From contig CAWCKY010000003.1 in NCBI GenBank assembly GCA_963796275.1, positions 672,001 to 736,000 of the forward strand: a DNA stretch of 64,000 nt. Direction: 5' to 3'. This document shows, one piece after another, positions 21,294-24,838 of this stretch. Every line of letters starts with the position of its first letter. Position 1 is the stretch's first letter. The DNA comes from an uncultured Acidobacteriota bacterium. GTDB taxonomy: Bacteria > Acidobacteriota > Blastocatellia > RBC074. The position numbers and the translations under genes were made by a program. The notes under the pieces are model-generated. The model saw only the letters and a program-made list of their open reading frames with translations. It did not search any database and was not told the DNA's origin.

Positions 21294-21301
21294 AGGAAAA
21301 T

Positions 21302-21365
21302 TCACAAAAAGAGGACATAAAAACATATAAATTTTCCCGATAATGTTTTTGTGTCCTCTTTGTAT
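21302..21365. terminator. Hairpin (terminator or REP-like) after the peroxidase gene
   Basis: acaaaaagaggacataaaaacat pairs with atgtttttgtgtcctctttgt, followed by a T-run. Confidence 0.6.
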
Positions 21366-21431
21366 TTTTTCTGCTCGCCATGATAGGGTAAATAGGATTC
21401 AGGACTCTACCTTTAGGAGGGTACCACTAAT

Positions 21432-22298
21432 ATGCTAACGCAATCGCTAAACCACACTTCTTCTCTCTACTCAACGACACGCAATTCAGATTTATCGCAT
21501 CGATCGTTCCGCTCGATTGCGGATTTCCGCAAAGCGAAACTGGATGGGCGCAAGATATCGATGCTCAGCGTCTATGACGCGATCTTCGCTCGGCTTGCGG
21601 TTGAGGCTGGGGCCAACACTCTCCTCGTAGGCGACAGTGTGGCGATGGTTCTATATGGATACGAGAGCACAATTCATGCCACGGTTGAGATGATCGCCTC
21701 GCACGTAGCGGCTGTTCGCCGCGCGTGTCCAGGCGCATTTATAGTCGCTGATCTTCCCTTCGGCTCCTACCGTAGAGGTGTGAAAGCCGCTATGAAGGCT
21801 GTCGAGGCAATGGCGCGCGCCGGAGCTAGCGCAGTCAAACTCGAGGGAGTCGCGGGCAATGAAAAGATCATCTCGCATATCGTTGAATCGGGAATTCCCT
21901 TGATGGGCCACATCGGGCTGACGCCTCAATCTGTGCTTGCGCTCGGAGGGTATAAGGTGCAAGGAGCGACAGAGAAGGGAGCATCCAGGCTCATCGAAGA
22001 CGCCCGAACCCTGGAGGGGCTGGGCGCCTTTTCACTTGTTCTGGAATGTGTAAGCCGCGGCCTGGGTCCACGTATCTCTACTCATCTTTCCATACCGGTC
22101 ATCGGAATCGGAGCCGGCGCGGATGTCGACGGTCAAGTGCTCGTGGTCTCCGACGTCCTCGGACTCTCGCGGGGCCGCTCTCCGCGATTTGTCAGGAAAT
22201 ACATGGATGGTGAGGCTCTGGTGTCAAAAGCGTTCGAAGAATTCTTTCGGCAGATAGACGAGTCGGATTACCCGAACCAGGCCGAGAGCTACGATTGA
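21432..22298 (+). CDS. panB: 3-methyl-2-oxobutanoate hydroxymethyltransferase
   Basis: LLVGDS, ADLPFGSY, AVKLEG, GHIGLTPQS, IGIGAG...DGQVLV; AGGAGG RBS. Confidence 0.96.
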   Translation: MLTQSLNHTSSLYSTTRNSDLSHRSFRSIADFRKAKLDGRKISMLSVYDAIFARLAVEAGANTLLVGDSVAMVLYGYESTIHATVEMIASHVAAVRRACPGAFIVADLPFGSYRRGVKAAMKAVEAMARAGASAVKLEGVAGNEKIISHIVESGIPLMGHIGLTPQSVLALGGYKVQGATEKGASRLIEDARTLEGLGAFSLVLECVSRGLGPRISTHLSIPVIGIGAGADVDGQVLVVSDVLGLSRGRSPRFVRKYMDGEALVSKAFEEFFRQIDESDYPNQAESYD

Positions 22299-23050
22299 TC
22301 GGAATTGACATGACTTCACAGATTCCCGGCAATCATCCGAGAAGGGTTTCGCTCGAGACGAGGACGAGGCTTACGGATGGTGTGCGGCAAGGGATTACAT
22401 CTTTCGATGGACTGATCGCTCATGGAAGAGGCGAGGCGTTTGATTATCTGCTGGGAGAGCAAACGCATGATTTTGCTCTACGTGCGATCGATGCAAGTGC
22501 GGCTGCTCTCCTCCTTGCAGAACGCCCCGTGATTTCAGTGAACGGAAATGCGGCAGCCCTTGTTCCACGAGAAATGGGAATTCTCGCGGAGATTCTCGGT
22601 TCTCCGCTCGAAGTGAACCTCTTTCACGCGAGCCGTGAGCGCGAAATGAAAATTCGCGATCACCTTCTCTCACACGGCGCCCGCCAAGTCCTCTTAGCGG
22701 ATGAGGATTTTGTTATAGGTGGTCTTGATTCCAACCGGCGCCTCGTAAATGGCCAGGGAATATATCGAGCCGATGTGATCTTCGTTCCTCTCGAAGACGG
22801 CGACCGCTGTGAGGCGCTCATTAGGTCCGGACGAAAAGTCATCACGATCGATTTGAACCCGTTATCGAGAACCGCGCGTACCGCCTCGATCACGATTGTG
22901 GATAATATCGTCCGGGCGCTTCCGCTGTTGATAGAACGTGTAAAATCTATTGGTTCGAATTCCCCTTCGATTCTCGAAGATATTATGAAGAAATACGACA
23001 ACAGCCTCACCCTTCGAGAATCAGAAGCGGTTTTACGTGGTAACCGTTGA
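22295..23050 (+). CDS. Archaeal-type 4-phosphopantoate--beta-alanine ligase (phosphopantothenate synthetase, COG1701-like)
   Basis: IP..HPR..SL, GLIAHGRGEAFDYLLGE, PVISVNGN.AAL, EVNLF, VPLEDGDR.EAL, IDLNPLSRTA, ITIVDNIVRA; start is TTG 22295 (overlapping the panB stop) or ATG 22310. Confidence 0.9.
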   Translation: MIGIDMTSQIPGNHPRRVSLETRTRLTDGVRQGITSFDGLIAHGRGEAFDYLLGEQTHDFALRAIDASAAALLLAERPVISVNGNAAALVPREMGILAEILGSPLEVNLFHASREREMKIRDHLLSHGARQVLLADEDFVIGGLDSNRRLVNGQGIYRADVIFVPLEDGDRCEALIRSGRKVITIDLNPLSRTARTASITIVDNIVRALPLLIERVKSIGSNSPSILEDIMKKYDNSLTLRESEAVLRGNR

Positions 23051-23124
23051 GGCAGGGCGGTATTGGGAGTGGGAGATAACAGTCGGTGAAGTCCATGGAG
23101 CGAACGGAGTGTTGACTCAATGAA

Positions 23125-23190
23125 CGTTTAGAGCTCCGCGGTCAGAAATCAAGCAAAAAAAAGACCGCGTAAACGCGGAACTCCAAACGC
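23125..23190. repeat. REP-like palindrome (family also at 35228-35306)
   Basis: cgtttagagctccgcggtc ... gaccgcgtaaacgcggaactccaaacg. Confidence 0.7.
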
Positions 23191-23210
23191 ATTAGTTCGG
23201 GGAGGGTTCT

Positions 23211-23981
23211 ATGATTCTTTGCCTGGACGTAGGAAATACGCAGATTTACGGTGGAGTATTCAAAGACAATGCGCTCGCCAGCACATTTCGGAAGAGCTCG
23301 TTAAATGTCGCCTCCTCAGATGAGTTCGGTCTATTTCTCCGTACCGTTCTGCGTGAGAGCGGTTACGATCCACTGGATGTGCGGCAGGTGGCGATCTGCT
23401 CGGTTGTGCCGAACCTGGTCCATTCTCTCCGCGCAGCGTGTCTCAAATACTTCGCCGGCGAACCGTTTCTTCTCCAACCAGGGGTTAAAACAGGACTCAA
23501 GATCAATTATCGAAACCCGATCGAAGTCGGCGCAGACAGGATCGCAAACGCTGTCGGCGCCCTCGATCGATTCCCCGATGAAAATCTAATTATCCTCGAT
23601 CTGGGAACAGCTAGCACCTTTTGCGCAGTCTCTTCCGGGCGCCAATATCTCGGAGGGGCGATTACCGCCGGGCTTCGCATCTCGATGGAAGCGCTCGAAT
23701 CCAAGACGGCTCGCCTGCCCGCCGTCGAAATAATCAGACCGGGGACTGCCGTCGGGCGCTCGACTGTTGAGAGTATTCAATCAGGACTGTTTTATGGGGC
23801 CGCCGGAGCTATTCGTGAGATTACGGAGAGAATGAAAACCGAATGCTTTCAAGGGCAGAATGTGATCGTGATCGGAACGGGGGGGTTCAGCAGGTTATTT
23901 GAGGAAGAGGGACTATTCGATAAGCTGGTTCCGGATCTGGTGCTACACGGTCTTTATGTCATTTGGCGGATGAATTCTTAA
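23211..23981 (+). CDS. coaX: Type III pantothenate kinase
   Basis: LDVGNT, SVVP, GADRIAN, DLGTAST, YLGGAI..G, TGG. Confidence 0.95.
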
Positions 23982-24547: not shown

Positions 24548-24838
24548 ACTGCGAAAGCATTGTTCTTCATCGAAGCGGGATTTCCGCGATTATCAAGAAA
24601 CCAAGCAACTTATCCGCTCTCTGATTTAGCTTACGCGGAGAGGGCGGCAACTGGATTGCTGTCGTCCGGTTAAAAAAGGAGAGCTCGAGTTGGGGGTCTA
24701 GATCAGAAATCGTATCGGTTTTAGTACGCACCGACTGCGGATTAAAAATAAATTCCGTATGACGGTTTAACTTTTCCCTTACAGTTTTTATAATTCTAAC
24801 GGCACCATCCCCCAGCGAATTGCAATGAGGTTTTCTGC

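Follow-up and report, generated by a model that had tools for sequence, protein, structure and literature searches.

The panB-PPS-coaX cluster of a soil acidobacterium (genome G000; hereafter the island) is a foreign, horizontally acquired and chimeric operon. It consists of three + strand open reading frames (ORFs) at positions 21432-23981 of the window, the whole 64,000-nt stretch of DNA that was analyzed (G000:C3:672001-736000; positions below are window positions unless a contig is named), and encodes ketopantoate hydroxymethyltransferase (PanB), a PF02006 homolog of phosphopantothenate synthetase (PPS), and a type III pantothenate kinase (PanK; CoaX). The canonical bacterial PanC/PanK route is complete elsewhere in G000, and a pantoate kinase (PoK) of the GHMP family was found genome-wide neither in G000 nor in its seven island-bearing relatives. 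Tentatively, and with somewhat less than even confidence, we propose that the type III PanK acts as a pantoate kinase for the archaeal-type PPS, which would create a third, chimeric route, running beside PanC/CoaA in the same cell and reached through in-place replacement of panC.

The three ORFs, their order, and their coordinates, as listed in a first-pass annotation made from the sequence alone, were borne out by the ORF list and by profile scores far over the cut-offs. The island panB, the sole panB of G000, scored 311.4 bits against PF02548, 275.3 against TIGR00222 (cut-off 207.55), and 319.3 against NF001452 (cut-off 272). The island coaX, the sole PF03309 gene of G000, scored 222.6 bits against PF03309 and 320.7 against NF009855 (cut-off 233). 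Its product matched the solved Legionella type III PanK (3djc, E 2e-96), and the blocks DVGNT, GADR, DLGTAST, and GTGG, which we take to be the kinase motifs of type III PanKs, were all found in the translation. PPS, present in a single copy in G000, scored 227.3 bits against PF02006 (cut-off 26.4; profile positions 1-173 of 176) and 329.8 against NF010324 (cut-off 227), and residues 9-242 aligned with 3wdk (E 4e-65) and 4mb0 (E 6e-65), two solved structures of Thermococcus PPS. The motif blocks that had originally suggested this assignment, GLIAHGRGEAFDYLLGE, VPLEDGDR, and IDLNPLSRT, were all present in the translation. The score against the archaeal equivalog NF041123 (4-phosphopantoate--beta-alanine ligase) was 295.5 bits, 4.5 below the cut-off of 300, a marginal shortfall that might be expectable for a bacterial branch of the family.

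The first-pass annotation had also noted that the window carries neither panC nor a GHMP pantoate kinase. This is true for the window, but elsewhere the assembly does have panC, which is intact (G000:C6:496345-497172; 295 aa; 320.6 bits; a 296-aa open frame without stops), together with coaA, a full-length type I PanK (C1:291944-292864; TIGR00554, 478.4 bits; cut-off 235), and CoaBC. Because panC and coaA are both intact, PPS has not replaced panC at the level of the genome, and this part of the initial proposal failed. The first-pass annotation had further envisaged an intact panC accompanied by an inactive PPS; the former was found, whereas PPS is itself intact, conserved, and under purifying selection. 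The G000 assembly (7 contigs totaling 9.46 Mb; completeness, 94.7%; contamination, 5.2%) is of metagenome-assembled genome (MAG) grade, its contigs are similar in G+C (0.534-0.550), and its island-bearing relatives are 80-96% complete. Since the same gene combination occurs in seven further assemblies, contamination does not explain it.

The search for a pantoate kinase covered several approaches. G000 has six GHMP kinases (PF00288), none of which reached E 1e-5 against either PoK model (NF040725 and NF041122). Four of these are galK, a galK-like gene, ispE, and thrB, and so are not a hidden PoK; the remaining two were rejected as PoK candidates, being present in 1/87 and 54/87 genomes of the family without tracking PPS, and searches of the Protein Data Bank (PDB) matched them only to mevalonate or heptose kinases. 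A mevalonate-kinase-like GHMP gene (G000:C7:43275-44198; L006:1198-2121) scored 133.7 bits against TIGR00549 (cut-off 163) and occurs in only one of the 87 family genomes, though G000 has the ispE of the MEP route. A six-frame search of the eight island genomes with NF040725 gave no match in six and matches of 17-19 bits in two, and tblastn of G000 with three bacterial PoKs found nothing. As a control of the PoK model, seven of eight scanned ORFs beside PPS in other lineages scored 123-155 bits, the eighth being CoaBC. Pyruvoyl-type PanD (PF02261) and a PanG-like DUF2520 protein were likewise not found genome-wide in G000. Type II PanK (PF03630) was matched in 0/87 family genomes, with a model that matched nothing in the controls either.

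The distribution of the island is narrow. PF02006 exceeded its cut-off in one of 201 sampled genomes of the phylum (G000 itself) and in eight of 301 genomes of the class, all from two genera of one family, namely G000 and G441 from its own genus and six of the eight genomes of genus g148. The order panB-PPS-coaX was kept in all seven relatives, and three genomes of the same two genera without PPS (G332, G344, and G413) were also missing coaX and panB. The survey of the family comprised 87 genomes, including the unpublished G427, which has no island genes and on which no conclusion depends. Type III PanK was found in 35 of them and type I PanK over the cut-off in 56, and the genera carry one type or the other; the nine genomes that match both are the eight PPS genomes and G359, where the PF03309 match is only a fragment of 58 positions lying at the edge of a contig. 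PanB exceeded the cut-off in 26/87 genomes, with 18 of the native type (366-377 bits) and 8 of a distinct type (299-312 bits), and the genomes with the distinct type are exactly the eight PPS genomes. PanC was found in 77/87, all eight PPS genomes among them. Most type I PanK genera of the family (f1) have panC and coaA and no panB at the Pfam cut-off, which suggests that these panB-less genera are auxotrophic for pantoate or pantothenate or draw ketopantoate from some unknown source. One island genome, G445, has a second, native-type coaX at a contig edge (G445:C6:159-806; L137; 250.8 bits); as G445 is listed with 8% contamination, this copy may not belong to the organism.

Sequence identities and phylogeny set the island apart from its host family. 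The island CoaX was 39-41% identical to family-native CoaX and the island PanB 42-47% identical to family-native PanB; PanC of the island genomes was 51-67% identical to family PanC. The flanks differed among G000, G371, and G441, with only the trio common to them within about 10 kb, and synteny with G413 began at about position 24829. No tRNAs were found at positions 10000-35000, no repeats were found flanking the island, and no mobility mechanism was identified. The island copy of G441 (L016/L147), from the same genus as G000, was further from that of G000 (panB synonymous divergence [dS], 2.8) than were the g148 copies (dS, about 1.0-1.3), a pattern that may reflect repeated transfer or a mismatch in taxonomy. 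The eight island genomes probably represent one acquisition.

Outside the clade, the CoaX proteins most closely related to that of the island carried Bdellovibrionota names (59-67% identity). Among 62 metagenome loci with a related CoaX, a panB match was found in 25 and a panC match in 24, and the CoaX was 54-62% identical in those loci that also have panB; the layouts checked were DUF2520-panB-panC-coaBC-coaX-panD, panB-panC-coaX, and panB-coaX. In quick trees of 63 PanB and 90 PPS sequences, supported by the Shimodaira-Hasegawa-like approximate likelihood ratio test (SH-aLRT) only, the island PanBs (SH-aLRT, 100) were nested (SH-aLRT, 99) in a set of 24 rows whose other rows were only PanBs of those operons, apart from family-native PanBs and from archaeal PanBs neighboring or fused to PPS. 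Given this nesting and the usual panB-panC-(coaBC)-coaX operons of the CoaX lineage, PPS occupies the panC slot. The earlier claim of a replacement in place, untenable for the genome, thus holds at the level of the operon. The PPS clade of the island (SH-aLRT, 100) has a stem of 0.37 changes per column, and its sister (SH-aLRT, 89) is a group of predominantly bacterial PPS sequences (Poribacteria, Gammaproteobacteria, Verrucomicrobia, Gemmatimonadaceae, Methylomirabilia, and one Planctomycetota-named protein), and PoK is present in the genomes sampled from that group. Thus, panB and coaX stem from an operon of the panB-panC-coaX type and PPS from a bacterial PoK/PPS lineage.

The comparison with other PPS-bearing bacteria drew on named genomes and took from them the 80 closest PPS loci, of which 25 were bacterial; one of these (G484) is itself an island genome, and the other 24 served as the comparison. 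PoK was detected in 24/24 of the latter (122-165 bits), compared with 0/8 island genomes. Counted over all 25, PoK occurred in 24, CoaX in 2, and PanC in 2, with the island genome supplying one CoaX and one PanC and no PoK. In 23/24 of the other bacteria both PanC and CoaX were missing, whereas G000 has PanC, CoaA, and CoaX together. The island clade is the sole one among the 25 bacterial genomes with PPS, and no PoK, beside PanC. The other exception was a Methylomirabilia MAG with PoK, PPS, CoaX, and a fragmentary panC. In this MAG, PoK and PPS adjoin (L056, 6296-7129 and 7130-7867), coaX is intact (L138; 247 bits), and the panC remnants (L148; G491:C84:3898-4564) match only as three short stretches spread over two reading frames; the MAG may have been caught midway from PanC/PanK to PoK/PPS. 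The 23 genomes with PoK and PPS and with neither PanC nor CoaX (among G485-G508; loci L046-L123) included members of Poribacteria, Gammaproteobacteria, Dehalococcoidia, Gemmatimonadaceae, Verrucomicrobia, Gottesmanbacteria, and Celaenobacter, and PoK/PPS bacteria therefore span more phyla than the published case of Poribacteria (PMC7883664). Within the 80 closest PPS loci, coaX lay beside PPS only in the Blastocatellia MAG L045 (the G445 assembly). Natural PPS fusions involved PanB (12), a GHMP/PoK domain (5), CoaBC-type proteins (2), a GNAT acetyltransferase (1), and DUF1611 (2) (P0130, P0143, P0399-P0411, P0391-P0396, P0149, and P0413-P0414).

Selection on the island genes was assessed in nine island copies with dS above 1. 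Internal stops were found in none of the nine copies of any of the three genes, and the ratio of nonsynonymous to synonymous rates (omega) was about 0.10-0.12 for panB, 0.12-0.16 for PPS (mean pairwise, 0.135), and about 0.06-0.075 for coaX. Omega for the native panC was 0.112 in island genomes versus 0.128 in those without the island, and for the native coaA, 0.089 versus 0.095. All five genes, panB, PPS, coaX, panC, and coaA, are under purifying selection, and the lack of relaxation of panC and coaA in island genomes speaks against the view that PPS simply duplicates PanC. In an alignment of 163 PPS sequences (84 from the clade and 79 others), PPS retained 52/52 positions conserved at at least 97%, including all conserved Arg and His; among strongly conserved positions, only K175R had changed in the clade, and the clade-specific changes at less conserved positions were Y12R, V22T, M173S, and I242L. 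Since K175R and Y12R keep or add positive charge, they would be expected if an anionic substrate were retained. In an alignment of 119 CoaX sequences, CoaX retained every position conserved at at least 98%, and its clade-specific changes relative to 91 relatives were only N50S, A116G, K144R, and K168R, all conservative. On this comparison, neither PPS nor CoaX appears to bear substitutions that change specificity.

In our favored explanation, the horizontally acquired operon derives from a bacterial panB-panC-coaX-type operon whose panC was swapped in place for the PF02006 ligase of a bacterial PoK/PPS lineage, and its host is a Blastocatellia-like sublineage natively possessing panC and coaA and no panB. 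The island PanB provides ketopantoate synthesis. In the mechanism we propose, CoaX would phosphorylate pantoate besides pantothenate, and PPS would join the 4-phosphopantoate to beta-alanine, so that pantoate would reach 4'-phosphopantothenate by a second route that needs no PoK. Joint working of the three genes, continued use of 4-phosphopantoate by PPS, and its synthesis by CoaX are inferred; one of the two enzymes must accept a substrate missing a group that is normally present. Phosphorylation before ligation is favored because the ancestry of PPS lies in PoK-carrying genomes, all its conserved cationic residues are retained, the native panC is not relaxed, and in other lineages PPS usually shares an operon with its kinase. 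Several observations weigh against this proposal. CoaX shows no mark of a new specificity, given its four conservative changes and its match to 3djc, and the position of PPS in the panC slot, like for like, fits a ligase-first order at least equally well. The pairing seen in the island was not encountered elsewhere: coaX lay within about 8 kb in 0/79 other PPS loci, PPS was found in 0/62 related coaX loci, and PF03309 was found in 0/26 long PPS fusion proteins, with no PPS-CoaX fusion among eight scanned representatives either. The available portions of the literature searched show no PanK acting on pantoate. Because the genomes are of MAG grade in completeness, the failure to find PoK is no proof of its absence, and because a single acquisition is probable, co-occurrence in eight genomes counts as approximately one event.

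The main rival explanation keeps the bacterial reaction order with a non-homologous ligase, the PF02006 enzyme of the clade accepting unphosphorylated pantoate as a pantothenate synthetase and CoaX being an ordinary pantothenate kinase. We regard it as doubtful, albeit a serious contender. It would explain why PPS sits exactly at the panC position of the ancestral panB/coaX operons and why CoaX is unaltered at conserved positions, and the long stem of the PPS clade (0.37 changes per column) leaves room for a shift. Pfam and NCBIfam, moreover, name the family 'phosphopantothenate/pantothenate synthetase', a name reportedly derived from work on a homolog from Methanosarcina mazei. However, every family-conserved residue of PPS is retained, the conserved Arg and His included, the clade-specific changes remove no positive charge, and PPS descends from lineages whose genomes have PoK; a true duplicate would also be expected to relax one copy, and the native panC has not relaxed. 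In addition, Yokooji et al. are said to have found in 2009 that Thermococcus PPS is inactive on pantoate.

That a different kinase feeds PPS, either CoaA through a loose activity on pantoate or some unrecognized kinase, with CoaX a CoA-insensitive pantothenate kinase carried along from the donor operon, seems unlikely to us. CoaA is present and constrained in all eight island genomes, CoaX looks wholly canonical, and PPS resembles the canonical phosphopantoate enzyme, all of which would fit. Nevertheless, among the island genes, coaX is under the strongest constraint (omega, 0.075) despite the presence of coaA, which suggests a role not covered by CoaA. It is also the sole kinase gene traveling with the island, and the two unassigned GHMP kinases of G000 do not follow the distribution of PPS (1/87 and 54/87). 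PPS might instead have another job, such as joining a different acid or amine, recycling 4-phosphopantoate from CoA-precursor breakdown, or regulating PanB together with CoaX. The genome offers no nameable source of 4-phosphopantoate, and CoaX of Mycobacterium tuberculosis regulates PanB according to the available text of PMC11626117, yet such a role is quite improbable: all family-conserved residues of PPS are retained, its fusion to or adjacency with PanB, PoK, or CoaBC in many lineages ties the family to the CoA-precursor pathway, and CoaX has kinase-type residues where the M. tuberculosis pseudokinase, as far as the available text describes it, is altered. Finally, PanC with CoaA or CoaX would be sufficient once PanB delivers ketopantoate, so that the organism could rely on PanB, PanC, and a PanK alone, with PPS a non-functional passenger of a useful panB. 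We consider this very improbable, as PPS is intact in 9/9 copies, its omega of 0.12-0.16 at dS above 1 is close to that of panB, and the conserved residues are all retained in 84 clade members.

The layout of the locus is given in the table below. The TTG start of PPS gives a product of 251 aa and a TTGA overlap with the panB stop, and the ATG start, 11 nt past that stop, gives one of 246 aa, identical to the protein-database product P0001. The hairpin in the leader probably serves to terminate transcription of the upstream gene. An Rfam search of the leader gave a sole, sub-threshold match to the SpF43 small RNA (34 bits; gathering score, 70; 21294-21369). A terminator-like + strand site was not found in the spacer between PPS and coaX; in the relatives, tblastn coordinates place the beginning of the coaX match about 9 to 155 nt from where the PPS match ends. 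The scan for promoters and terminators found nothing relevant exceeding shuffled controls.

Features of the panB-PPS-coaX locus (window positions)
Feature	Position	Strand	Remarks
Leader	21294..21431	+	separates the upstream cytochrome c peroxidase gene from panB
Inverted repeat I1	21308-21361		in the leader; 19-nt arms, 95% complementary
panB, ketopantoate hydroxymethyltransferase	21432..22298	+	288 aa; profile matches
PPS, PF02006 phosphopantothenate synthetase homolog	22310..23050 (ATG) or 22295-23050 (TTG)	+	profile matches
PPS-coaX spacer	23051..23210	+	160 nt
coaX, type III pantothenate kinase	23211..23981	+	256 aa; profile matches

Compared with known systems, the island combines elements of two routes. 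Its ligase belongs to the same family as that of the archaeal PoK/PPS route (Thermococcus kodakarensis; 3wdk and 4mb0), with a near full-length match, and the sponge-associated Poribacteria with PoK/PPS likewise have a PF02006 gene in a bacterium, as reported in the available part of Thomes and Lescure 2020 (PMC7883664); in contrast to that route, the neighboring kinase of the island is a type III PanK. The panB-panC-coaX and DUF2520-panB-panC-coaBC-coaX-panD operons (L149-L184) have PanB and CoaX of the same lineages and share with the island the order panB, ligase, and kinase, but their ligase is PanC (PF02569), whereas that of the island is PF02006. Relative to the Bdellovibrionota-type operons, coaBC and panD lie outside the island, and the island host belongs to Acidobacteriota. 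M. tuberculosis has CoaA and CoaX, and G000 likewise has type I and type III PanK homologs, with its coaX linked to panB. In the available part of PMC11626117, CoaX of M. tuberculosis is described as a pseudokinase regulating PanB turnover, with R8 and H229 in the inactive protein. The island CoaX has glycine at both of the positions so reported (in DVGNT and GTGG), and since glycine is retained there, it is probably an active kinase. No published description of a PPS-coaX pair was found in the literature searched, and nothing was found there on phosphopantothenate synthetase in Acidobacteria.

The order of steps from pantoate to 4'-phosphopantothenate has been treated as a marker dividing bacteria from archaea, and the two routes have never been seen together in one organism according to the available part of the one paper on bacterial exceptions (PMC7883664). 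What is new here is the undescribed combination and the history of the operon; the enzyme families themselves are known. Both gene sets are under selection in one lineage, and an archaeal-type ligase without its usual kinase stands in the slot of the bacterial ligase, which makes the island a test case for the exchange of a pathway step for a non-homologous enzyme. The finding bears on whether type III PanKs or PF02006 ligases have broader substrate ranges than assumed, and it is relevant to the annotation of CoA synthesis in uncultured bacteria. If an ordinary CoaX has latent activity on pantoate, any bacterium with CoaX could take up PPS without PoK.

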